Virus record (IMG/VR): IMGVR_UViG_3300020152_000001
Span: 44,766 to 108,765 of that record
Length of the DNA stretch: 64,000 nt
Reading direction: 5' to 3' (one strand)
Source: a virus
Taxonomy: Duplodnaviria > Heunggongvirae > Uroviricota > Caudoviricetes
Positions 5,853 to 54,285 of this stretch are shown here, piece after piece. The notes beneath the pieces are model-generated. The model ran no database searches, was not told where the DNA came from, and saw only the letters and a list, made by a program, of their open reading frames with translations. Every line of letters starts with the position of its first letter. The first letter of the stretch is position 1. A program made the position numbers and the translations under genes.

Positions 5853-6320
5853 TTACGCCCTTAGATACAAAGCGACCTCGGCCTCCCGGCGTCGGATCAG
5901 TCCGTTTGATCGCACCTTCGCTCCCTTCTTCGTCACCCAGATGAAGCGCCGCAGCTGCGTCGGGACTTCAGTCAGACGCCCTTCTCGGATCAGCCTAAAG
6001 ACCACCCAACTCGGCGACGCTCCAGCGTTGAAAGCGAACGACACCAAAGCGCCGTACTGATTGTCGGTGAGGGACGCCAACCGATCGGCTGGCATGCACG
6101 CGGCCAGTCGCGTCTGCGCTTCTCGGAGGTCAAGCCGGAGAAGACGCTCCGCTTCCTCTTCGGTGATGGTCTTTTTGCCGACATCGTCCCCGCTTACGGT
6201 CTCCGTGTGACCGTAACCGATCGAAGGCACACCGGCCTCGCAGCGGTAGGCGACAAGCTCTAGGTTCTCGAAGCTCTTGATGAGATCGATTGCCGCTTGG
6301 TTGAGTTCACGAGTTGCCAT
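5853..6320 (-). CDS. endolysin, GH24 phage lysozyme
   Basis: AIDLIKSFENLELVAYRCEAGVPSIGYGHT is the T4/lambda-R-type lysozyme catalytic motif. Start at ATG MATREL (6320). Confidence 0.8.
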   Translation of the reverse strand: MATRELNQAAIDLIKSFENLELVAYRCEAGVPSIGYGHTETVSGDDVGKKTITEEEAERLLRLDLREAQTRLAACMPADRLASLTDNQYGALVSFAFNAGASPSWVVFRLIREGRLTEVPTQLRRFIWVTKKGAKVRSNGLIRRREAEVALYLRA

Positions 6321-7375: not shown

Positions 7376-7727
7376 GAACCTCCTCGTTGAGCTGGTTCAT
7401 GGCGGCGTCGAGATCGCCGCCGTTGTTGTTGATGGTGTCCTGCAAGCACGCGCCAACGTCTTCTGACGCCAGGAACGAAACCCAGCCTTGTTCGGTGACT
7501 AGGAAGGGTTCACGGCCGGCGATGCTACCAGCGAGAATCTTTCCGTCCTTGTCGACGGCAAGCCACGTGTTCTCCGGAAGGAACGAGCTGACGCGGACGA
7601 CCATGCCGTTGAATAGGGAGATCGCGGCGCCTTCCGGCGGGATCAGCGCCACGGCCTGCATCATCTTCGCGATCTCGTCCTGAGGATTGAAGGCGAACTT
7701 CGAGGCGTCGGGGTTGTTGTCGCTCAT
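7359..7727 (-). CDS. hypothetical protein
   Basis: Start at MSDNNPD (7727). ATGA coupling with the upstream gene at 7724-7727. Confidence 0.4.
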   Translation of the reverse strand: MSDNNPDASKFAFNPQDEIAKMMQAVALIPPEGAAISLFNGMVVRVSSFLPENTWLAVDKDGKILAGSIAGREPFLVTEQGWVSFLASEDVGACLQDTINNNGGDLDAAMNQLNEEVHGGRA

Positions 7728-8074
7728 GGGCGGTACGAAGCCACGCTTTGGACTTTGTGGACGAGTTCGTTGTTGAGCAGCGTCTTCTTGATCCTCTTGC
7801 GGATGATGCCGTAGCCCTTTTCGGTGTCGGGCTCCCAAACTTCAGCGTAGAAGCTGGGCCACATGGACGACGATTCTTCGCGACCACACTGCAAGCAAAT
7901 GCGACGCGGCGGATGATAGCCGTCACCGCCAACGTAATAGGCTTCTTCGGCGACGTGCTCGTGTTTGCAGGTCCTCTGCACTTCTTTGACGATCGCCGCC
8001 AAGCGCTTCTCTTCCTTCTCGACGCGAGCCTGCGCCAAGCGGATGCGGCGGTTGAGATAGTCGGTCAGAGCCAT
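7724..8074 (-). CDS. hypothetical Zn-ribbon-like protein
   Basis: CKHEH...CLQCG cysteine/histidine cluster. Operon position. Confidence 0.4.
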   Translation of the reverse strand: MALTDYLNRRIRLAQARVEKEEKRLAAIVKEVQRTCKHEHVAEEAYYVGGDGYHPPRRICLQCGREESSSMWPSFYAEVWEPDTEKGYGIIRKRIKKTLLNNELVHKVQSVASYRP

Positions 8075-9771: not shown

Positions 9772-9958
9772 TCAGGCGTTCTCGAAGCGTGTGGATGTCT
9801 CGATGCGCAGTGCGGACGCCTTTGATGTCGGCGTCGATGCAGCGCATGATTTCGTCGTCACTGACGTGCGACCACGCAGCCAGCAGAGCTTCATCAGCCG
9901 TGGCGTGGCCATCGATGATGCCCTTTGGGGCCAAGGCTGAGGGGACTCGCGCTCTCAT
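9659..9958 (-). CDS. hypothetical protein
   Basis: 99-aa ORF in operon. Confidence 0.35.
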   Translation of the reverse strand: MRARVPSALAPKGIIDGHATADEALLAAWSHVSDDEIMRCIDADIKGVRTAHRDIHTLRERLSGVRKWDENEVRKNGIERMRRVLDLRAAARLERKLVA

Positions 9959-10155
9959 TTCTTCTTCTTCACCGGGGCAGCGCGGTCGACGGCGTGACTC
10001 AGCAGCGCCAACGACTTCGCGAGATCACGAGCGGCACCGGCGGCTTCCTGGGCGGCGATAACGAGAGCACGAGGACCTCCGACGTGCGCCTGCATGTCGA
10101 GGGTATCGGCTAGAGCCAAAGCGTTCTGGGCTTCCTTCTTGAGGTCAAACGCCAT
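9955..10155 (-). CDS. hypothetical small protein
   Basis: ATGA overlap at 9955-9958. Confidence 0.35.
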   Translation of the reverse strand: MAFDLKKEAQNALALADTLDMQAHVGGPRALVIAAQEAAGAARDLAKSLALLSHAVDRAAPVKKKK

Positions 10156-10364
10156 CAGCGGCCTCCGTCCAGAAAGCCTTCATCCCAGGAGAAGGCCTCA
10201 GTGGTGCCGGCGTCGAAGGGGTTGTCTTCCATGTCCAACCCCGCGCGTGCGTCCGCCTGCCCTTTCTTGAAGGACAGCTGATCGATGATGCGATCGGCCC
10301 GGCGTTCGCTGTCTTCGTCCAACCAATCGTCGTCGAAATCGGAATTGAAGCTGTCTAGGCTCAT
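10155..10364 (-). CDS. small highly acidic protein (69 aa)
   Basis: ATG at 10364 overlaps the helicase TGA (ATGA). About 30% Asp/Glu (DFDDDWLDEDSE...). Confidence 0.4.
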   Translation of the reverse strand: MSLDSFNSDFDDDWLDEDSERRADRIIDQLSFKKGQADARAGLDMEDNPFDAGTTEAFSWDEGFLDGGR

Positions 10365-25638: not shown

Positions 25639-25680
25639 ACTGTAAGTTAGGCTGACGCCGATGTCAATCAGGAAAGAGGG

Positions 25681-27018: not shown

Positions 27019-27046
27019 TTGACGGCGATGTCAGTCTCCCTTACAA
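27019..27046 (+). promoter_or_regulatory. putative rightward promoter (TTGACG-N16-TTACAA)
   Basis: Within the 117-bp divergent intergenic region upstream of the rIIA-like gene. Confidence 0.35.
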
Positions 27047-27088: not shown

Positions 27089-29290
27089 ATGAAGTCGGCA
27101 GTTCTGGAAAAGCGCGAAGTCGAGGTCGGTGGCGCCTCTGAGATCGGTGAATTCACGATCGCGGCCAACGCCAAGGCCTTCCGCATCCTCATCGACGGCC
27201 TGTATTCCGACAAGCCGCGCGCCATCGTCCGTGAACTCTGGTCGAACGCCTTCGACTCCCACATCGAGCACGGCTGTGCCGATCGCCCGTTCGAATGCCA
27301 CCTCCCGACGCAATGGGAGCCCTTCTTCAGCGTCCGGGACTTCGGAGTCTCGCTGTCGCACGAAGGCGTGATGAAGCTCTACACCCGCGTTTTCGAGTCC
27401 ACGAAGGAAGACACCAACAAAGCCGTGGGCAAGTTCGGCCTCGGCTCGAAGACGTTCTTCGCCTACACCGACTCCGCTAACGTCATCGCTCGCAAGGACG
27501 GCCGCAAGCGCACCTACAACGCCTTCATCGCCGAGAACGGCAAACCCATGATCGTGCTCTTCGCCGACGAAGAGTGTGACGAAGAACAGGGTCTGGAGGT
27601 CTCGTTCTCGGTCAAAGTCCAGGACATCGAGAATTTCAAGCGCGCCGCCCGTATGACGCTGCCGGGCTTCGATGTTCACCCCATCATGACTGGCGCCGAA
27701 GTCGTCGCCGAGAGCCTTCAGACCAACATTGAAGGCACCGGCTGGCGACTGGTCCGCCCGAACAACCTCGTCCGCACGGCCGTAGCCCGCCAGGGCTGCG
27801 TGATTTATCCGATCGATCGCGGCGCCATGGCAGACGAAGCCCTCAGCTACACGCAGCTGGAGCTTCTGAACTCGCCGCTGTTCATCGACTTCCCGATCGG
27901 CGATGTCGACATCACCCCGTCGCGCGAAACCCTCTCCTACGACGACGCGACGAAGAAGAATATCGCCAAGCGTCTGGTCGAGATCGAGAACGAAATCGTC
28001 GGCCGTGTCGAAGTCGCTATCTCCGGTGCGAAGACGCTTTGGGAAGCGCGCCGCGAGCTGAATTCTGTCCTCGGCGAATACTCGCTGCCGTCGACGATTC
28101 GCGACTTCATCAAAGGCAACGCCAAGTGGCGCGGCGAAACCGTCGAACGCTACATCAAGGTCAAGTCGCGACCGTTCGCCGCCCTCGCGCACATTCGCTC
28201 GTATGAACTCCGTCGCCGCAAGTCGGAAATTCGTTTCGACGCGAGAAGCGACATCAGCCTCACCGTCGACGACGGCTTGGTCATCGTTTTCCAGGACGTG
28301 AACAAGCGCGTTACCTACCAAAACGCACGCTTGCGCGAGTTCATCGACACCCTGCCCTACAACAGCGATCGTTCGGTTCTGTGGGTCAAGGTCGACTATA
28401 CGAAGACCGACTACAAGCGCCTGCTCGTCGATCTCGGCAAGCCGCCGGCTAATGTCATCTACAAACTCGAAGACATGCCGGAACCTTATATCAACCGCGT
28501 CGCCGGCCCGAAGATCAAGATCAAACGCCTCGACTATTCGTCGTGGACGGAAGCCAACCATCAGCCCGAAGACGGCGGCATCTATGTCGACTTGAAGAAG
28601 AACGACATCATCCGCAAGGTCAAACGGCCGATCGAGCAAGTGAAGTACGAAGACGGCCAACCCGTCACCGACCCCGCCACCGGCGACTGGGTGTATGAGA
28701 CCGTCGTCAAAGAAGTCGAGACGCATGTCGGCGTCTACGAACTCAAGAACTTCATCGAACTCCTAGTGGCCCAGGGCGTGATGAAGGACGGCGACCAAGT
28801 CCTTGGCATCACCGCGTCCTACAAAAACATACCGACCAAGCACGCCGGCTGGAAAAACTTCTTCGATCTCCTGGACGAAAGCGTCGACACCAACATCGAC
28901 CTCAACCTCTTGGCGTCGGTGAAGGCCTATGATCCCGTAAAGCGTACACGCGCTTGGAACATTGCCGAAGAAATGCTGGACGCCGGCCTGCAAGTCACCG
29001 ATGGCCCGGCAAAGAAGCTCATGGCCGAGATCGAGTTCTATCGCGAACTCGTTGCTTCGGATGACGTGAAAAAGGCGGAGGCCGCGTTCAAGGTTCTCCA
29101 AGCCGTCCGTCCGCAAGACGCGGAGCTGCCGGACGCTCCGGAACCTTGCGAAGCCGAAATCTCAGCCTTCGAAGACGCATACCCCATGGCCATGGCCTTG
29201 GTGGAGGCCTCGTATGGTTCGATCTCGTCGGCGCAGCTGTCGATGATCGTCGATTACGTAATTCTCGTTGACAAACGTCAGCAAGTGTGA
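27089..29290 (+). CDS. rIIA: rIIA-like GHKL (Hsp90-type) ATPase
   Basis: LYSDKPRAIVRELWSNAFDS and VGKFGLGSKTFFAYTD match the Hsp90/GHKL N and G1/G2 boxes. 733 aa, followed by a partner gene, as in T4 rIIA-rIIB. Confidence 0.55.
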   Translation: MKSAVLEKREVEVGGASEIGEFTIAANAKAFRILIDGLYSDKPRAIVRELWSNAFDSHIEHGCADRPFECHLPTQWEPFFSVRDFGVSLSHEGVMKLYTRVFESTKEDTNKAVGKFGLGSKTFFAYTDSANVIARKDGRKRTYNAFIAENGKPMIVLFADEECDEEQGLEVSFSVKVQDIENFKRAARMTLPGFDVHPIMTGAEVVAESLQTNIEGTGWRLVRPNNLVRTAVARQGCVIYPIDRGAMADEALSYTQLELLNSPLFIDFPIGDVDITPSRETLSYDDATKKNIAKRLVEIENEIVGRVEVAISGAKTLWEARRELNSVLGEYSLPSTIRDFIKGNAKWRGETVERYIKVKSRPFAALAHIRSYELRRRKSEIRFDARSDISLTVDDGLVIVFQDVNKRVTYQNARLREFIDTLPYNSDRSVLWVKVDYTKTDYKRLLVDLGKPPANVIYKLEDMPEPYINRVAGPKIKIKRLDYSSWTEANHQPEDGGIYVDLKKNDIIRKVKRPIEQVKYEDGQPVTDPATGDWVYETVVKEVETHVGVYELKNFIELLVAQGVMKDGDQVLGITASYKNIPTKHAGWKNFFDLLDESVDTNIDLNLLASVKAYDPVKRTRAWNIAEEMLDAGLQVTDGPAKKLMAEIEFYRELVASDDVKKAEAAFKVLQAVRPQDAELPDAPEPCEAEISAFEDAYPMAMALVEASYGSISSAQLSMIVDYVILVDKRQQV

Positions 29291-30772: not shown

Positions 30773-31282
30773 ATGCCCGTCAACAAGCTCAAGCTCGTGC
30801 CCGACTCCGACCCCGTGCTTCACCAGCCGGCGCCGGAAGTCGCGATTACGGGCTCGCAGCTTCGCGGTGGTAAGAGCTATCCAGACTTCGGCGCTGAAGT
30901 CATCGCCGAACTCAGCGACATGTACGACCTCATGAAGATGCAGCGTGCGATCGGAATCGCCGCGCCTCAGGTCGGACTGGCCAAGCGCATGTGCATCGTC
31001 GCCGTGGGTCACGACGTTCATTTCATGATCAACCCCAAGATCACGTTCTCGTCGGGGATCAAGCAGACGGCGCTAGAAGGCTGCCTCTCCTACCCCGGCC
31101 AACAAGCCAAGGTGTCGCGTTCACTCTCGCTCGTCGTCGAGTTCTACGATCGCTCTGGCATCTTCCACAAATTGCGAGCGCAGGGTTTGCTTGCCCGCTG
31201 CATCGCACACGAGGTCGACCACCTCGACGGCATCGTCATGCACGATCGCGTCAGCGTGGCTGACAAGCGTCAGGCAAGCTAA
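30773..31282 (+). CDS. def: peptide deformylase
   Basis: All three PDF motifs are present: GIAAPQVG, EGCLS, HEVDHLDG. Confidence 0.9.
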   Translation: MPVNKLKLVPDSDPVLHQPAPEVAITGSQLRGGKSYPDFGAEVIAELSDMYDLMKMQRAIGIAAPQVGLAKRMCIVAVGHDVHFMINPKITFSSGIKQTALEGCLSYPGQQAKVSRSLSLVVEFYDRSGIFHKLRAQGLLARCIAHEVDHLDGIVMHDRVSVADKRQAS

Positions 31283-33322: not shown

Positions 33323-33715
33323 ATGCCGATCATCACCCAACATCGCTACTACCGCAGTGACGCCCAGCGCAATCGCGGCGTCCTCTACGTCTTCGGCGAC
33401 AACGTTGCCCGTGAGGGCTACGGTGGTCAGGCGAAGGAAATGCGTGACGAACCCAACGCAGTCGGTGTCCGCACGAAGGTTGCGCCGACGATGCGGCCGA
33501 ACGACTTCTTCAGCGACAGTTACTATGACGACGCCGTCGCCATGATCGAAGACGACTTACGCCGCGTCGTCGATCACCTGGAGAAAGGCGGCATCGTCGT
33601 GTTGCCGGCGGACGGCCTCGGCACCGGCCTCTCCGAACTCCCGACGCGGGCTCCGCGCATCCACGCCTACCTCGAAGCCCGGCTCCAGAAACTCATCGAC
33701 GACTACGATCTATGA
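33323..33715 (+). CDS. hypothetical protein
   Basis: 130-aa ORF. Motif VLYVFGDNVAREGYGGQAKEMR. Confidence 0.45.
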   Translation: MPIITQHRYYRSDAQRNRGVLYVFGDNVAREGYGGQAKEMRDEPNAVGVRTKVAPTMRPNDFFSDSYYDDAVAMIEDDLRRVVDHLEKGGIVVLPADGLGTGLSELPTRAPRIHAYLEARLQKLIDDYDL

Positions 33716-34191
33716 ACCTGCTTCGCGACATCATACAGTGGACGAACGCCGCGTTGGCGGCGTGCTTGATCACGCTCAACGTCTACTTGATCGCGAATTC
33801 GATCCCGATGCCGGATTGGTTCGCACCGATGTCGTATCTTCTCGTCGGCGCCATCACGGCGCGGCTCTACGTCCGCTATTGGAAGCCAGACGACTCCAGC
33901 GACGGCGTCGCGGGTCTCGTGGCCATCGTCGGCTGGTGGGTGATTTGGTACTTCGTCATCGCTGGCTCTCTCATGTGGTTGGTGACGACGCTGGCGCGGT
34001 TCGTTGGGTGCTGCCTCGGCGGTGAGGCCGCGTTTCGTAAAGAACAATACAATTGGGAGCCTGCGTGGCTCCGAGACTTCATGCAACGTCAGCTGACGAA
34101 GCACTACCTTCGCCGCATTCGCCGCGAGGAAGCTAAAGCCTGGGACGCAGAAATAGCGCGGCGTAACGCCGAAGAGGCGAGCAATGTCTGA
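33712..34191 (+). CDS. hypothetical polytopic membrane protein
   Basis: 3-4 predicted TM helices. ATGA coupling. Confidence 0.45.
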   Translation: MNLLRDIIQWTNAALAACLITLNVYLIANSIPMPDWFAPMSYLLVGAITARLYVRYWKPDDSSDGVAGLVAIVGWWVIWYFVIAGSLMWLVTTLARFVGCCLGGEAAFRKEQYNWEPAWLRDFMQRQLTKHYLRRIRREEAKAWDAEIARRNAEEASNV

Positions 34192-34295
34192 AGAACTGAT
34201 CAAGCGCATCTGCACCACGATCATGGTCCTGGCGCTGCCGGCCTCATGCACTGTCATGGAGGTGAAGCGTCTCGAAACCGTCGCGGAGATATACG

Positions 34296-35973: not shown

Positions 35974-36227
35974 AACTCAGCCGCCGCAGCTTTTTCGGAG
36001 TGGGCCTCGCCGTTGGAGCCATTGCGGCCTCAGCAGGTAAAGCCGCCTCTGAACCTCCACAGCCAACTGCTCCGGCTGTTGCTGTCGATGAAATTCGGGG
36101 CCTCAACTTCAGAGGCCCTTACTCGCCGCTCGACAATTATGTCGTCGGCGATGTCGTCCACTATCACGGCGGCGTATATTTGTGCGCCAACGGATGGCAG
36201 GTGCTCGCGGCTCCTGGCCATCCGTGA
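35970..36227 (+). CDS. small secreted protein with twin-arginine (Tat) signal
   Basis: MKLSRRSFFGVGLAVGAIAASAG is a Tat-type signal (SRRxFF). Confidence 0.5.
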   Translation: MKLSRRSFFGVGLAVGAIAASAGKAASEPPQPTAPAVAVDEIRGLNFRGPYSPLDNYVVGDVVHYHGGVYLCANGWQVLAAPGHP

Positions 36228-36532
36228 AGCCGCAGGTTTTCAACCGACACCACGGCAACGTTCCAGCAGACGCAGTCTACATCGGCCGAGGCAGTAAGTG
36301 GGGAAACCCCTTCGTCGTCGGCCGAGACGGCACCAGGGCGCAATGTCTGCGCGCCTACAGAGAATACTTGCTGTCAAACGCGGCGCTGATGGCGTCGCTT
36401 CATGAACTCCGAGGAAAGCACCTTGTCTGTTACTGCAAACCCAAACCCTGCCACGGGGACATCCTCGTCTACCTCGCAAACCCGCCCGCCGCTTCGGAAG
36501 ATCGAAAGTGCGTTGTCGATCTACCAGGGTGA
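36182..36532 (+). CDS. DUF4326-family protein
   Basis: VYIGRGSKWGNPF and CYCKPKPCHGDIL are the DUF4326 signatures. GTG start; ATG at 36194 is an alternative. Confidence 0.6.
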   Translation: MRQRMAGARGSWPSVKPQVFNRHHGNVPADAVYIGRGSKWGNPFVVGRDGTRAQCLRAYREYLLSNAALMASLHELRGKHLVCYCKPKPCHGDILVYLANPPAASEDRKCVVDLPG

Positions 36533-50308: not shown

Positions 50309-50455
50309 TTCTTGCGGCCGTCAGTTTTATTGACACGGCCGGCAAGCGTCGCTATCCTCGTCCTTCATCCCAAAAGCCGCACGGCCTAGCCGGCGAGACC
50401 TTGCGTCCGCCGGACGCCTCCCCTGTTGCCTCCAACCAAGAAGGTCACAAGACCC

Positions 50456-52495
50456 ATGAAACTCCGTCCGTCCGTCCGCGCCGAAATCGTCGAGCATCGC
50501 ACCTATCTCCGCCCGCTCGATGACGAGGGCGCAGTATTCGAGACGACGGAGCAAGCAGTCGACCGCATCATCGGCCATCAGCGATGGCTTTGGGAGCGCG
50601 CCCGTGGTGAGGCGTTGGGTCCGACACAGGAAGCCGAACTCTCGGAGCTTCGCCAGCTTCTCATTGAACGCAAGGTCACTGTCGCCGGCCGCACGCGTTG
50701 GCTAGGCGGCACTGAAGTCGCCCGGCGTCGTGAGTCCTCGCAGTTCAACTGCGCTCACCTCGAAATCCGCACCGTCCACGACATCGTCGACTCGTTGTGG
50801 CTCCTGCTGCAAGGCTGCGGCGTCGGCTTCACTCCGGTGCCTGGAAGTCTCAATGGATTCCAGTGTCCGATTCCCGAAGTCGTCGTGAAGCCGAGCGCCG
50901 TGACGAAGGAAGCGTGGGAAGCCGGCGTTCGTGGCCGCGAGAACAACCGCGAAAGCTTCAACCGCCGCACCGGCGTCTGGACAATCACCGTTGGCGACAG
51001 CGCCGAAGCCTGGGCGAAGTCCATCGGCAAGATCATGGCCGGCAAGTATCCGGCGAAGAAACTCGTACTCGACTTCTCGCAAATTCGTCCAGGCGGTATT
51101 CGTCTGAAGGGCTACGGCTGGATCAGCAGCGGCCACGAGCCCATCGCCAACGCCTTTAAGAAGATCGCCGAGATCATGAGCGCCCGCGCCGGGCAGCTCC
51201 TGTCGAAGATCGACATCCTCGACATCATCAATCTCCTCGGCACCATCCTGTCATCGCGTCGATCGGCGCAAATCGCTCTCGTGGAATTCGGCAGCCCAGA
51301 GTGGGTCGAGTTCGCGAAAGCCAAGGCCAACTACTGGGCGCCGGAAGTCAACAAGCCCTGGCGCGCTCAATCCAACAACAGCTTGGTCTTCTACCAGCGG
51401 CCGACTCGCGACGACATCCGCAGCATCCTCGAAATCATGATGGCTGCCGGCGGCAGCGAACCCGGCTTCATCAATGGCGTCGCCGCTCGCGTTCGCGCCG
51501 CTTGGTTCAAGGGTGCGAACCCCTGCGCCGAAATCCTCCTCGGCGATCGTTCTTTCTGCAACCTCGTCGAAGTCGTTCTCTTCCGCTTCAACGGCGATCG
51601 TCAGGCCCTATACCGCGCCTTCTGGCTCATCGCCCGTGCGAACTACCGGCAGACGTGTGTCGACCTCGACGACGGCATCCTCCAGCGCGGTTGGCACGAA
51701 CTCAACGAGTTCTTGCGGCTCTGCGGCGTTGGCGTCACCGGCGTCGTCTCCTGGGATAGCCACGGCGACCCCATTGCGTGGCAGCAACTCCGGCTTGCGG
51801 CTGTAGACGGCGCCAACTCCATCGCCGACGAACTCGGCCTGCCCCGAGCTAAGGCCGTGACCACGATCAAGCCCAGCGGCACGCAATCCAAGGCCCTCAG
51901 CCTCGAAGGCCAGGAAGTGCCAGAAGGCATTCACAAGCCCCTGGGTCGCTTCATCTTCAACAACATCGGCTTCGGCCGGCATGATCCCCTGGTCGCGAAG
52001 CTCAAACGAGCCGGCTACTACGTCTTCGATAATCCCTACGACGCCACCGGCGTCCTCGTCCGCATTCCCGTGGAATTCTCCAACATCGAGTTCGACGCCG
52101 TCGAGCGCGAGATCAACGGCGAACGCGTGGTCGTCGAGGTCAATCAAGAGTCGGCGATCTCTCAGCTGGAGCGCTACAAGCTCGTGATGGAGAACTACGT
52201 CGACCACAACGCCTCGATCACGGTCTCCTACGACCCCTCCGAGGCCGATGAGATCGCGGACTGGCTGCACAACAACTGGGACATCTACGTCGGAGTCAGC
52301 TTCCTCTATCGCAACGACCCCGCGAAGACGGCGGCCGATCTCGGCTACGCGTATCTGCCGCAGGAAGTCGTCGATGAGCGCACCTATCGAGAATACGTCG
52401 CCGGCCTGAAGCAGCTGAATTTGCGTGGCACCGACTCCTTCGACGAGGTCGAACTCGGCGATCAATGCGCGACTGGCGCTTGCCCGATTCGTTAA
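50456..52495 (+). CDS. nrdJ: class II (adenosylcobalamin-type) ribonucleotide reductase-like
   Basis: NPCAEILLGDRSFCNL matches the RNR NPCGE...CNL active-site motif. C-terminal CATGAC cysteine pair. Start moved to ATG at 50456 behind aagaagg; the track start is TTG. Confidence 0.55.
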   Translation: MKLRPSVRAEIVEHRTYLRPLDDEGAVFETTEQAVDRIIGHQRWLWERARGEALGPTQEAELSELRQLLIERKVTVAGRTRWLGGTEVARRRESSQFNCAHLEIRTVHDIVDSLWLLLQGCGVGFTPVPGSLNGFQCPIPEVVVKPSAVTKEAWEAGVRGRENNRESFNRRTGVWTITVGDSAEAWAKSIGKIMAGKYPAKKLVLDFSQIRPGGIRLKGYGWISSGHEPIANAFKKIAEIMSARAGQLLSKIDILDIINLLGTILSSRRSAQIALVEFGSPEWVEFAKAKANYWAPEVNKPWRAQSNNSLVFYQRPTRDDIRSILEIMMAAGGSEPGFINGVAARVRAAWFKGANPCAEILLGDRSFCNLVEVVLFRFNGDRQALYRAFWLIARANYRQTCVDLDDGILQRGWHELNEFLRLCGVGVTGVVSWDSHGDPIAWQQLRLAAVDGANSIADELGLPRAKAVTTIKPSGTQSKALSLEGQEVPEGIHKPLGRFIFNNIGFGRHDPLVAKLKRAGYYVFDNPYDATGVLVRIPVEFSNIEFDAVEREINGERVVVEVNQESAISQLERYKLVMENYVDHNASITVSYDPSEADEIADWLHNNWDIYVGVSFLYRNDPAKTAADLGYAYLPQEVVDERTYREYVAGLKQLNLRGTDSFDEVELGDQCATGACPIR

Positions 52496-52530
52496 GTCTC
52501 TCTTTCTGGCGCAACTGAGGACCGCTGAGA

Positions 52531-52544
52531 ATTGACTTTTGTCA
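52531..52544. repeat. perfect palindrome TTGACttttGTCAA
   Basis: Read directly from the sequence. Lies 36 bp after the RNR stop codon. Confidence 0.6.
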
Positions 52545-52574
52545 ACGGTGGGTTGCGCCTAAAGGCAGTCAGAA

Positions 52575-52689
52575 TCGCATAGCTCAGACGGTTAAGCGCA
52601 TAGCCGAGCTGAGATCGCAGTTGTTGCACTGCAATATATCACCGCACCCGCAACAAATTGCAGAAGAACGCTATGCGAACACGCATAGG
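52575..52689. repeat. four copies of the 8-mer CGCATAGC in both orientations (iteron/operator-like)
   Basis: CGCATAGC at 52575 and 52597, GCTATGCG at 52670, CGCATAGG at 52682. Interleaved inverted repeats TTGTTGC/GCAACAA and CTGCAAT/ATTGCAG and an ATATAT tract. The local GC content is visibly lower than elsewhere in the window (not computed). Confidence 0.5.
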
Positions 52690-53014
52690 CGGCGCAGTTG
52701 CTTGCCTAATGACCGAAACGTAAGGCGCAGACGAAAAAAGTTCCATACTGGGGCGCCGCAAGCGTAAAGCCAAGGTTCCCAAGAGCACTGCTAACGGCCG
52801 ACATGGTTCCCATACTTCAACACCACCGTAGACCTAAAGGATAGGCACATTGAATACTTGGATGGAGTGAGTTTAAGAAAGGTTGCTCTCACTGTCTTCT
52901 GGGGTTACTGTGGTCAATGTAAGCTACGCTTCTAACATGATTTGTTGCGCCACGCGCGATTTTGCTGTAGTGACTTACTCGCGTGGTCGGAACTGACCGC
53001 AGAGGTAAGAGTTG

Positions 53015-53824
53015 ATGGCACGCAAGGCAAAAGGTGCTAAGCGCACAGTGAAAAGGAGACGCATCATGAAGACTGCTCCGGCGGCGCCGCCGCCACAGAC
53101 TCCGCCCCGGGCCGCTGCCGGTCCTCGTCTGGTTTCGGAGACCGGGGTTCTCGCACGTGAAAAGTCGACGGTGGGCTCTCGCCTACGCGAAGCCCGGGAG
53201 CGCGCAGAGATGACGCAAGCCGACGTAGCTGGAAAGCTGCCCTCCCCGAAGGGCGACGGCCGGACGATGTCTCGGGCGAACATCGCTCAGTACGAAAGCG
53301 ACGCCGTCGAGCCCCCGCTTCACACCGTCGAAGAGATCGCGAAGATTCTGAAGACGCCGGCCTCGTATCTGGCATTCGGCGTCGGCGGGCTTGGTCCCCT
53401 CGGCACCGGCCAGGACGCGATCGATGCCTTGCTCGCTGAGGTCCCCGAATTCACGTTCGGCGACGCTCCCGACGCCCGCGAACCCGTCACCGAATGGAAG
53501 CTGCCGAAGGACTGGCTGCGGGCTCAGCTCCGCGTCAGCAAGTTCGACGACCTCTTCATCTACCAGTGCCAATCGCAGAACATGGCGCCGCAATACGAGT
53601 TCGGCGACAAGCTCGTGGTCGACGGCAGCGACCGTAAGGGCAGCGGTGTCTATCTGCACTGGGACGGCACGGCGCCGGCGATCAACCGCATCACCGTGAT
53701 CCCCAAGGCCTCGGGCCCGATCGCGCGTGTGGCGTCGACGGACAATGTCACCGACCAATACGAGGTGCCGGTCTCTGACCTGCATATTCTCGGCCGCGTT
53801 CGCGGCGTCTGGAAAGCCTCGTAA
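53015..53824 (+). CDS. CI-like repressor (N-terminal XRE HTH plus C-terminal S24 LexA-like peptidase domain)
   Basis: HTH SRLREARERAEMTQADVAGKL...ANIAQYES. S24-like QSQNMAPQYEFGDKLVVD and ILGRVRGVWK. ATG at 53015 behind agaggtaagag. Confidence 0.65.
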   Translation: MARKAKGAKRTVKRRRIMKTAPAAPPPQTPPRAAAGPRLVSETGVLAREKSTVGSRLREARERAEMTQADVAGKLPSPKGDGRTMSRANIAQYESDAVEPPLHTVEEIAKILKTPASYLAFGVGGLGPLGTGQDAIDALLAEVPEFTFGDAPDAREPVTEWKLPKDWLRAQLRVSKFDDLFIYQCQSQNMAPQYEFGDKLVVDGSDRKGSGVYLHWDGTAPAINRITVIPKASGPIARVASTDNVTDQYEVPVSDLHILGRVRGVWKAS

Positions 53825-54208: not shown

Positions 54209-54285
54209 TGGCGCACCCGACAGGATTCGAACCTGTGACCTCTGCCTTCGGAGGGCAGCGCTCTATCCAGCTGAGCTATGGGTGC
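54209..54285 (-). tRNA. tRNA-Arg (anticodon CCG)
   Basis: Reverse complement GCACCCATAGCTCAGCTGGATAGAGCGCTGCCCTCCGAAGGCAGAGGTCACAGGTTCGAATCCTGTCGGGTGCGCCA folds as a cloverleaf. Anticodon loop CTCCGAA. T-loop GGTTCGAATCC. 3' CCA is encoded. Confidence 0.85.

Follow-up and report, generated by a model that had tools for sequence, protein, structure and literature searches.

A putative host LexA operator in the non-coding region between a ribonucleotide reductase operon and a CI-like gene in a phage genome segment

Coliphage 186, at tum, and CTX-phi use host LexA operators, and the PRM/OR region of lambda is an autoregulated cI control region. In Alphaproteobacteria other than Caulobacter, the direct repeat GTTC-N7-GTTC is a LexA operator. 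It is also the LexA operator of Caulobacter crescentus, known at chromosomal SOS promoters (da Rocha et al., 2008, as cited in PMC9578287 and PMC12700426). In the Gifsy prophages of Salmonella, antirepressor loci are under LexA control (Lemire et al., 2011, PMC3121763), and in GIL01, a temperate phage of Bacillus thuringiensis, host LexA acts at phage promoters, with the phage encoding a LexA-like protein as well (PMC6182141). An exact copy of the Caulobacter pattern lies in a 519-nt gap (positions 52496-53014) of a 64,000-nt phage genome segment (the window; GC about 60.6%), between the last gene of an operon, which encodes a ribonucleotide reductase (RNR), and a gene for a CI-like regulator. 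The gap is probably a non-coding boundary and control region between the two, carrying a host LexA operator. Positions are in whole-window numbering; those of the relative called L002 below are in the numbering of its own contig.

The Gifsy arrangement is the closest parallel. There too a host LexA box stands in a non-coding stretch downstream of replication genes and is preceded by terminator-like palindromes; the Gifsy box ties phage regulation directly to SOS. However, it is a gammaproteobacterial palindrome and controls a dinI homologue and a small antirepressor, whereas the box in the gap is an alphaproteobacterial direct repeat before the CI-like gene itself, and no antirepressor open reading frame (ORF) was found. 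The locus resembles GIL01 in having host LexA operator(s) in a phage control region; GIL01 differs in being a Gram-positive system without a classical CI; its box is of the CGAAC-N4-GTTCG type and its genome is built differently. With the operators of the Caulobacter LexA regulon the pattern is identical, a GTTC direct repeat with a 7-nt spacer, but this putative operator is phage-borne.

The box (Table 1) was the sole conserved match when the gap was scanned with regulatory consensus motifs. Its spacer is an inverted copy of the CGCATAG repeat found elsewhere in the gap. In the sole close relative, IMG/VR contig 3300033074_002047 (L001/L002/L069; RNR 85% and CI-like protein 79% identical, collinear with the window over 41.4-56.0 kb), an exact box stands in the same register (L002 6188-6202), with identical half-sites and a diverged spacer (GAAC CTTGTGA GAAC). 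The site is thus a direct GTTC-N7-GTTC repeat whose half-sites are kept in relatives around a free spacer, and this putative LexA operator is the best-conserved element of the gap. Among other motif families, CtrA (TTAA-N7-TTAA), DnaA, IHF and sigma-54 had no conserved match in the gap; the EcfG-type pattern GGAAC-N16/17-CGTT matched, with a mismatch, only over the Shine-Dalgarno (SD) region, and the GGAAC-to-CGTT spacing near the repeats is 19-20 nt.

A host with an alphaproteobacterial-type LexA is indicated by the attP site rather than by a lexA gene. Between its xis-like and int genes (7715-7760 region), L002 has exactly the 3′ 45 nt of tRNA-Arg and none of the 5′ half; the attP core can therefore be placed at the corresponding 45 nt of the window, 1.2 kb from the gap. 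An exact match to this core is found in the tRNA-Arg of at least 120 genomes, nearly all of them alphaproteobacterial, and by this match the host of the phage is placed in the Alphaproteobacteria. Among about 120 genome loci fetched with the core, no related prophage adjoined the tRNA-Arg. The window has the complete tRNA-Arg, which would mean either capture of the whole tRNA here or loss of its 5′ half in the relative.

The box recurs at homologous loci. Regulator homologues 29-40% identical to the CI-like protein are found in RcXuper, MD18, DSS3P8, RpAliso, Mwe-JY26, L005 and the Caulobacter CbK-like phage CcrBL10, in the order RNR-(grx)-dUTPase-[130-415 nt]-helix-turn-helix (HTH) regulator, with an integrase downstream of the regulator in some of them only. 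At 9 of 14 such loci (DSS3P8, MD18, RpAliso and Mwe-JY26 included) the 420 nt before the regulator gene contain an exact box, and its spacer differs from locus to locus; compared with two boxes in the remaining 68 kb, this corresponds to a binomial P of 1.2e-14, a value too optimistic for related loci. Two further loci share the same one-mismatch variant, GTTC-N7-GTGC, at the equivalent place. Because the motif is invariant while the regulators are only about 30-40% identical, a conserved host factor, rather than a phage repressor, is suggested to lie behind it. At these other loci the box is co-oriented with the regulator gene, 64-111 nt from its start, and is followed after 1-2 nt by a CTTG element resembling a -35.

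The DSS3-phi-8-like roseophages (Zhan et al., 2016, PMC4961962), together with MD18, RpAliso and RcXuper, share the gene order of the window: genes for RNR and nucleotide metabolism come first, then a brief intergenic region, the HTH/S24-type regulator and an integrase or tRNA (not in MD18). A LexA box or near-box stands upstream of the regulator. Their box, however, has the orientation of the gene, stands 67-98 nt before the start codon and adjoins the CTTG element, whereas the window phage lacks grx and dut, has its box inverted and 334 nt off, and has a regulator 30-34% identical to theirs. The DSS3-phi-8 paper notes an integrase and a repressor and does not mention LexA (Zhan et al., 2016), and no report of a LexA operator as a family trait of these phages was found in the literature. 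Among cultured phages the closest homologue of the window's regulator (39.5%) belongs to the Microcystis phage Mwe-JY26 (PP438418, L194), which has 60% GC and an alphaproteobacterial-type box at 2351-2365, upstream of the regulator; its cyanobacterial host assignment looks doubtful.

Several observations weigh against the proposed reading of the gap. No convincing sigma-70 promoter overlies the box: a consensus scan gave none, and a weighted scan gave ambiguous candidates on both strands. The whole window contains two exact boxes, as chance predicts (about 2.6 per window). The box of the window and of L002 is on the strand opposite the CI-like gene, 334 nt from the start of that gene, and its target may differ from that at the other loci; the 14 loci are not phylogenetically independent; and, with a single close relative, positional conservation refers to two genomes. 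The stem-loop after the RNR gene has no U-tract. The S24 domain of the CI-like protein is weakly detected, so that its role as a lysogeny repressor is putative, and a repressor gene that is itself repressed by LexA would be counter-intuitive for prophage induction. The second exact GTTC-N7-GTTC, at 27233-27247 on the minus strand, is inside the 5′ part of a rIIA-like gene and is probably fortuitous.

Table 1. Sequence features of the gap and its surroundings, in window numbering.
Feature	Position	Strand	Remarks
RNR gene, class II (B12-dependent, NrdJ-like)	50426-52495	+	Pfam RNR-II insertion domain; 61% identity to Sinorhizobium phage phiM12 NrdJ
Composite stem-loop, 19 bp	52508-52559	+	pairs GGCGCAAC/GTTGCGCC, CCGCTG/CGGTGG and TTGAC/GTCAA; begins 13 nt past the RNR stop
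Palindrome TTGACTTTTGTCAA	52532-52545		TTGAC-N4-GTCAA
(T/G)CGCATAGC, two direct copies	52575-52583, 52596-52604	+	21 nt apart; lineage-specific
CGCATAG copies	52576, 52597, 52682		inverted CTATGCG at 52671
10-mer CATAGCTCAG	52578		match to D-arm of phage tRNA-Arg
Hairpin GCAGTTGTTGC/GCAACAAATTGC	52617-52661	+	from the "interleaved" inverted repeats; A+T tract in loop
TTGTTGC; GCAACAA	52621; 52650
CTGCAAT; ATTGCAG	52629; 52657
-10-like hexamer TATATT (the ATATAT tract)	52633-52638	-	27 nt from LexA box; TATTAT at same distance in L002
ATATAT	52634
Putative LexA (SOS) box, exact GTTC-N7-GTTC	52666-52680	-	plus strand GAAC GCTATGC GAAC
Hairpin/palindrome CTATGCG-AACA-CGCATAG	52671-52688	.	overlaps right half of LexA box; T-rich tail on minus strand
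Anchor AAGAAC-N7-GAACACG	52664-52683		conserved in L002
Anchor TGACC	52710		conserved in L002
Anchor GTTCCATA.TGG	52740		conserved in L002
Anchor GTTCC	52775		conserved in L002
Anchor GTTCCCAT	52806		conserved in L002
Anchor GAATACTTG	52852		conserved in L002
Anchor AGTTTAA.AAA.GTTG	52870		conserved in L002
Anchor CTG.CTTCTG	52892		conserved in L002
GTTCC repeats, RGTTCC(C)A x3	52740, 52775, 52806 (52740-52813)	+	same register in L002 (6262, 6298, 6328)
Moderately conserved islands	GAATACTTG 52852-52860; AGTTTAAGAAAGGTTG 52870-52885; CTGTCTTCTG 52892-52901 (52852-52911)	+
Candidate rightward promoter TTGCTC-17-TACTGT	-35 52883-52888; -10 52906-52911	+	L002 in register, TTGATT-17-TAGATT
Candidate rightward promoter TTGTTG-18-TGTAGT	52942-52971	+	in register in L002
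Candidate rightward promoter TTGCGC-17-TAGTGA	52945-52973	+	overlaps the previous one; -35-like elements at 52942-52950
79-nt block (an anchor in L002)	52941-53019	+	86% identical to L002 (blastn E 9e-15); runs to CI-like start codon
CI-like regulator gene	53015-53824	+	P22 C2-like HTH (E 1e-9); weak S24-like C-terminal domain
tRNA-Arg(CCG)	54209-54285		between xis-like and int genes
attP core, 3′ 45 nt of tRNA-Arg(CCG)	54209-54253	-	L002 retains exactly this 45-nt piece

In the arrangement proposed here, a strong stem-loop right after the RNR stop would end or stabilise the operon transcript. Behind it come a lineage-specific spacer with the two CGCATAGC copies and a second hairpin, and then the putative host LexA operator, with a conserved -10-like A+T element 27 nt off. 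Some 260 nt, in which the three GTTCC repeats and some short islands are conserved at fixed spacing, lead to a conserved promoter or leader block bearing the site where ribosomes would bind to translate the CI-like gene. As long as the DNA of the alphaproteobacterial host is undamaged, LexA on the box would repress a promoter in the gap; after DNA damage, RecA-stimulated cleavage of LexA would free this promoter, and expression of the lysogeny module would be tied to SOS.

A wider reading is offered more tentatively, as possible rather than probable: that a large group of alphaproteobacterial siphophages (DSS3-phi-8-like roseophages, RcXuper-like phages and the lineage of the window, some of them described as lytic) puts a host LexA operator before an HTH/S24-like regulator, and so reads the SOS state via LexA and not, or not only, via self-cleavage of the repressor. 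The lineage of the window would then have rebuilt this module, with the box inverted and 334 nt upstream and three GTTCC half-sites at fixed spacing; the rebuilt form could serve a higher-order complex of LexA or the regulator, or a divergent SOS-induced small RNA. The regulation of these phages is essentially unstudied. If LexA does bind, there would be a testable route from DNA damage to lysis-lysogeny control in widespread marine and soil alphaproteobacterial phages, and this would account for the keeping of an HTH/S24-like "repressor" even in members reported to be lytic. GTTC-N7-GTTC upstream of the regulator could also be a sequence marker that helps to annotate these phages and to infer that a host is alphaproteobacterial; by this marker Mwe-JY26 looks misassigned. 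The gap itself is mostly an ordinary intergenic terminator-plus-control region, and the SOS link is modestly new.

The near-consensus hexamer TATATT at 52633-52638 is a candidate -10 of a LexA-controlled promoter in either direction. It is within a conserved island, GCAATA, and is read on the plus strand as CAATAT in the window and AATAAT in L002. Read leftward, the -35 is weak, and the distance from box to -10 is 27 nt, against 25 nt in other phages. Read rightward, the plus-strand site in L002 is TTCGCA-18-AATAAT, and the A+T island would put the LexA box at about +22. Control by LexA could therefore bear on a leftward transcript without a conserved ORF (a possible small RNA) or on a distal rightward promoter with a long leader into the CI-like gene.

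An unlikely alternative, overlapping the main reading and compatible with it, is that a small non-coding RNA is the main product of the gap, for example a LexA-controlled leftward transcript starting near 52626, carrying the GCUAUGCG repeats and ending at the 52559-52508 stem-loop or in the 3′ end of the RNR gene. As proposed, its minus-strand promoter would have CTGCAA (52663-52658) as -35 and TATATT (52638-52633) as -10. The 27-nt distance from box to -10-like hexamer is the same in both genomes; the minus strand downstream has no conserved ORF; the hairpin at 52688-52671 scores as terminator-like on that strand; and a strong hairpin in L002, about 80 nt leftward, could terminate in both directions. 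Against this, the -35 is poor, the spacer would be 19-20 nt, and on the minus strand the stem-loop of the window is not followed by a U-tract. Leftward of the box, GCTATGC is all that can be aligned between the two phages. Two-sequence RNAalifold gave weak consensus energies, no informative covariation and no conserved structure, and the individual folds (z -1.6 and, on the minus strand, -0.38) are not significant. The preliminary description had listed a non-coding RNA locus among its candidates; a search of 52350-53150 against Rfam 15 gave no match at gathering thresholds or even at E<=10. An RNA product is possible.

From 52666 to the start of the CI-like gene, the offset between the gap and L002 stays constant (46478 as far as 52860, 46479 beyond it), held over 350 nt by a series of short anchors. 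Between the anchors identity is about 26%, the level found in wrong registers, that is, chance. Within 52640-52938, all five GTTC/GAAC tetramers are positionally conserved, compared with 12.5% of all tetramers. Each of the three GTTCC repeats contains the LexA half-site GTTC. As full LexA boxes they were rejected: they have no partner half-sites, and GTTC density is not enriched in upstream regions. The search for further close relatives of the CI-like protein gave one locus in viral contigs and none in genome or metagenome contigs; in a set of 5.8 billion proteins, it matched only itself and the L002 protein. DNA patterns from the conserved block found L002 and a chance match within a structural gene (L068), and blastn of the gap against 50,697 phage records gave no match. 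The window sequence was found identical in three other assemblies, so sequencing error in the gap is not an issue; an ENA contig of 132,745 bp with identical sequence stops just past the tRNA-Arg.

The conserved 79-nt block before the CI-like gene contains an inverted repeat, CCACGCG (52950-52956)/CGCGTGG (52980-52986), with 23 nt between its arms, a GGAAC at 52989-52993 and the SD sequence GAGG at 53002-53005. It may be either the core promoter, if the 52942-52973 promoter is used, or a 5′ leader, if that at 52883-52911 is. Neither rightward candidate passes an E. coli-type consensus scan, and a weighted sigma-70 score gives many ambiguous candidates. The RNA fold of the block is neither significant nor shared, the minimum free energy structures differing between the two phages. 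A conserved CTTCTG (52896-52901) is complementary to a conserved CAGAGG (53000-53005) that holds the SD sequence of the first start, and in transcripts begun upstream of 52890 anti-SD pairing is possible.

The CI-like gene has two possible starts, an ATG at 53015, served by GAGG at 53002-53005, and an in-frame ATG at 53066, preceded by AAGGAG at 53053-53058; both are conserved in L002. The 17 basic codons between them diverge in L002, and gene callers took the 53066 start (252 aa). Long and short isoforms are possible; if the real start is at 53066, the non-coding stretch extends to 53065. The match of the C-terminal domain to S24 (Pfam E 0.005) is below cut-off, and a search of the PDB with a family profile gave no S24 structure.

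The preliminary description had proposed an operator region of the CI-like repressor. On a reading of this kind the phage's own CI-like or XRE proteins would bind in the gap, with TTGAC-N4-GTCAA, CTATGCG-N4-CGCATAG and GTTCC as operators in a lambda-like immunity region. As in lambda PRM/OR, the DNA just before a CI-type HTH repressor gene is non-coding and would hold the promoter and leader of that gene. The half-site geometry of 7 bp, 4 nt and 7 bp fits an HTH dimer, the palindrome in L002 shows a symmetric change (CTATGCA-N4-TGCATAG), and the GTTCC repeats are positionally conserved. The DSS3P8-like loci have palindromes of the type GTGAC-N5-GTCAC, 12 nt upstream of the LexA box. This spacing was seen in four of the phages RcXuper, MD18, DSS3P8, CcrBL10, Mwe-JY26, RpAliso and L005, with conserved arms and variable loops.

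Other observations make this reading rather unlikely. Positional conservation in L002 is lacking for the TTGAC palindrome and for three of the four copies of CGCATAG, although the repressors are 79% identical. In L002 the palindrome, with its T-tract, makes a canonical terminator. No other promoter of the window carries any of these motifs: shared 10-mers numbered 54, against 70 expected, and CGCATAG and TTGAC-N4-GTCAA are essentially unique to the gap, all four copies of CGCATAG in the 64-kb window being inside it, within 113 bp. Unlike lambda, the region has no three-palindrome operator array and no divergent cro was found; the palindromes of the gap are unrelated to each other and absent from other intergenic regions of the window, the upstream gene is co-oriented, and the conserved operator matches a host LexA box. 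Among the earlier candidates the operator region nevertheless comes closest. What stands of it is a control region conserved up to the CI-like start, with a conserved LexA operator; operators for the phage repressor were not identified in it, and its palindromes are not conserved.

To the left of the LexA box, the first 170 nt or so past the RNR stop cannot be aligned between the window and L002. The stem-loop at 52508-52559 is predicted to be stable (dG -28.2 kcal/mol, z -3.0; of 200 shuffles, two were equally stable), and the palindrome TTGACTTTTGTCAA is its tip. It is a G+C-rich stem-loop right after the last gene of the operon; it is followed by TAAAGGCAGTC in place of a U-tract and was not listed by a terminator scan. 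It is probably a 3′-end or terminator structure of the operon. In the same zone L002 has a canonical terminator (6078-6111) with a 15-bp stem and a T-tract (z -8.2), whose arms contain GCTATGCA and TGCATAGC. Of the two CGCATAGC copies, the first alone is partly conserved in L002, as TGCATAGC, there the 3′ arm of the terminator. The hairpin at 52617-52661 has a dG of -13.9 kcal/mol (z -2.4; 3 of 200 shuffles); that at 52671-52688 is not significant (z -0.7 on the plus strand, -1.3 on the minus strand). A scan rates the latter hairpin as terminator-like when read on the minus strand; L002 does not conserve it.

These left-hand sequences bear on a very unlikely further reading, in which the gap is a functionless spacer left by gene loss, with repeats arising by chance or local duplication. 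Relatives have grx and dut at the equivalent position, with only 130-250 nt of intergenic DNA, the left 170 nt do not align with L002, and several motifs are individually near chance. A grx or dut remnant was looked for in the gap and rejected, no similarity being detectable, and the fixed-spacing anchors, the 86% block and the family-wide LexA box show selection on the right two-thirds.

The description of the gap as non-coding holds. Its ORFs do not exceed 49 aa and none is of Pfam scale; substitutions against L002 fall at 42/41/47 and 12/17/16 over the three codon positions, compared with 7/5/36 in the adjoining RNR gene. Because the mismatches are even over the codon positions, unlike those of RNR, the gap, including a 37-aa upstream ORF, is taken to be non-coding, a conclusion supported by this absence of 3-nt periodicity. 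The 37-aa ORF (52883-52996), tried as a hidden protein gene, shares CCATRDFAV..Y.RGRN with a 41-aa ORF in L002; it was rejected, having no codon periodicity, and the shared part is the conserved 79-nt block. The gap had also been called the only long non-coding stretch of the window, which may not strictly hold, a crude coding test also leaving 9938-10363, 33713-34265 and 36030-36389 uncovered. Its AT-richness is relative: the GC of 0.51, against 0.606 overall, is lower than in any other 500-nt stretch of the window, but A+T does not exceed 67% in any 30 nt of the gap.

All of the motifs listed earlier are present, with coordinates correct to within 1 nt. The repeat density of the gap is moderately above chance: a 7-mer in four non-overlapping copies arose in 20 of 3000 dinucleotide shuffles, and an 8-mer in three copies, as for GGCGCAAC, in 69 of 3000. 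That part of the earlier claim stands; the 10-mer shared with the tRNA is a chance match, and neither the CGCATAG copies nor the TTGAC palindrome is conserved as such in L002. Most of the listed repeats are hairpin arms, parts of the LexA box, or lineage-specific.

Such repeats, in a low-GC stretch, had suggested an origin of replication or an iteron set; on this reading the A+T tract would be the unwinding element. The gap does have the lowest GC of the window, direct repeats (CGCATAGC in two copies 21 nt apart, GTTCC in three copies spaced by 31-35 nt) and a cumulative GC skew minimum nearby (52-57 kb). The skew, however, follows the coding strand throughout the window and is confounded with it, its minimum coinciding with the convergent switch of gene strand. 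The repeats are of 7-9 bp, in two or three copies each, and do not form iterons of 17-22 bp; the longest families of direct repeats have two copies of 11-23 nt at 74-91% identity, and the CGCATAGC copies are not conserved in L002. With A+T at most 67% per 30 nt there is no strong unwinding element; the best DnaA box has two mismatches, and the IHF consensus is not matched at one mismatch or fewer. The replication genes are T7-like (polymerase, helicases), and no iteron-binding initiator was seen among the genes scanned. An origin here is accordingly highly improbable.

The last candidate, an att-site or tRNA-gene remnant, came from the 10-mer that the gap has in common with the D-arm of the tRNA-Arg. 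It is one of about 40 chance 10-mers shared between the tRNA neighbourhood and the window, and it is not conserved in L002. ARAGORN and Rfam show no tRNA-like element in the gap, and the attP core is located elsewhere, at 54209-54253. The idea can be dismissed almost entirely. For the observation that drew attention to the gap, the main value of the analysis is in these negatives: no features of an origin, and no att remnant.

As to the genes around the gap, its left edge is the stop codon of the RNR gene, the final gene of a rightward early and nucleotide-metabolism operon that also contains rIIA/rIIB, helicases, a T7-like DNA polymerase, a RecE-like exonuclease and a dNMP kinase, and whose 3′ limit is 52495. 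Rightward from RNR, the 519-nt gap is followed by the CI-like gene, a reverse xis-like gene, tRNA-Arg/attP, int and an XRE gene, and then by leftward lysis and tail genes.

Elsewhere in the window, two pairs of near-identical motifs were seen. TGACG(C/G)CGATGTCA occurs at 25653-25666 and 27020-27033, in the two short gaps where early and late genes diverge, and TGACAA(A/G)CGTCA at 29269-29280 and 31261-31272, before the rIIB-like and following genes. Both pairs have a TTGAC core that resembles a -35, which makes a repeated early motif, either promoter or operator, the probable explanation.

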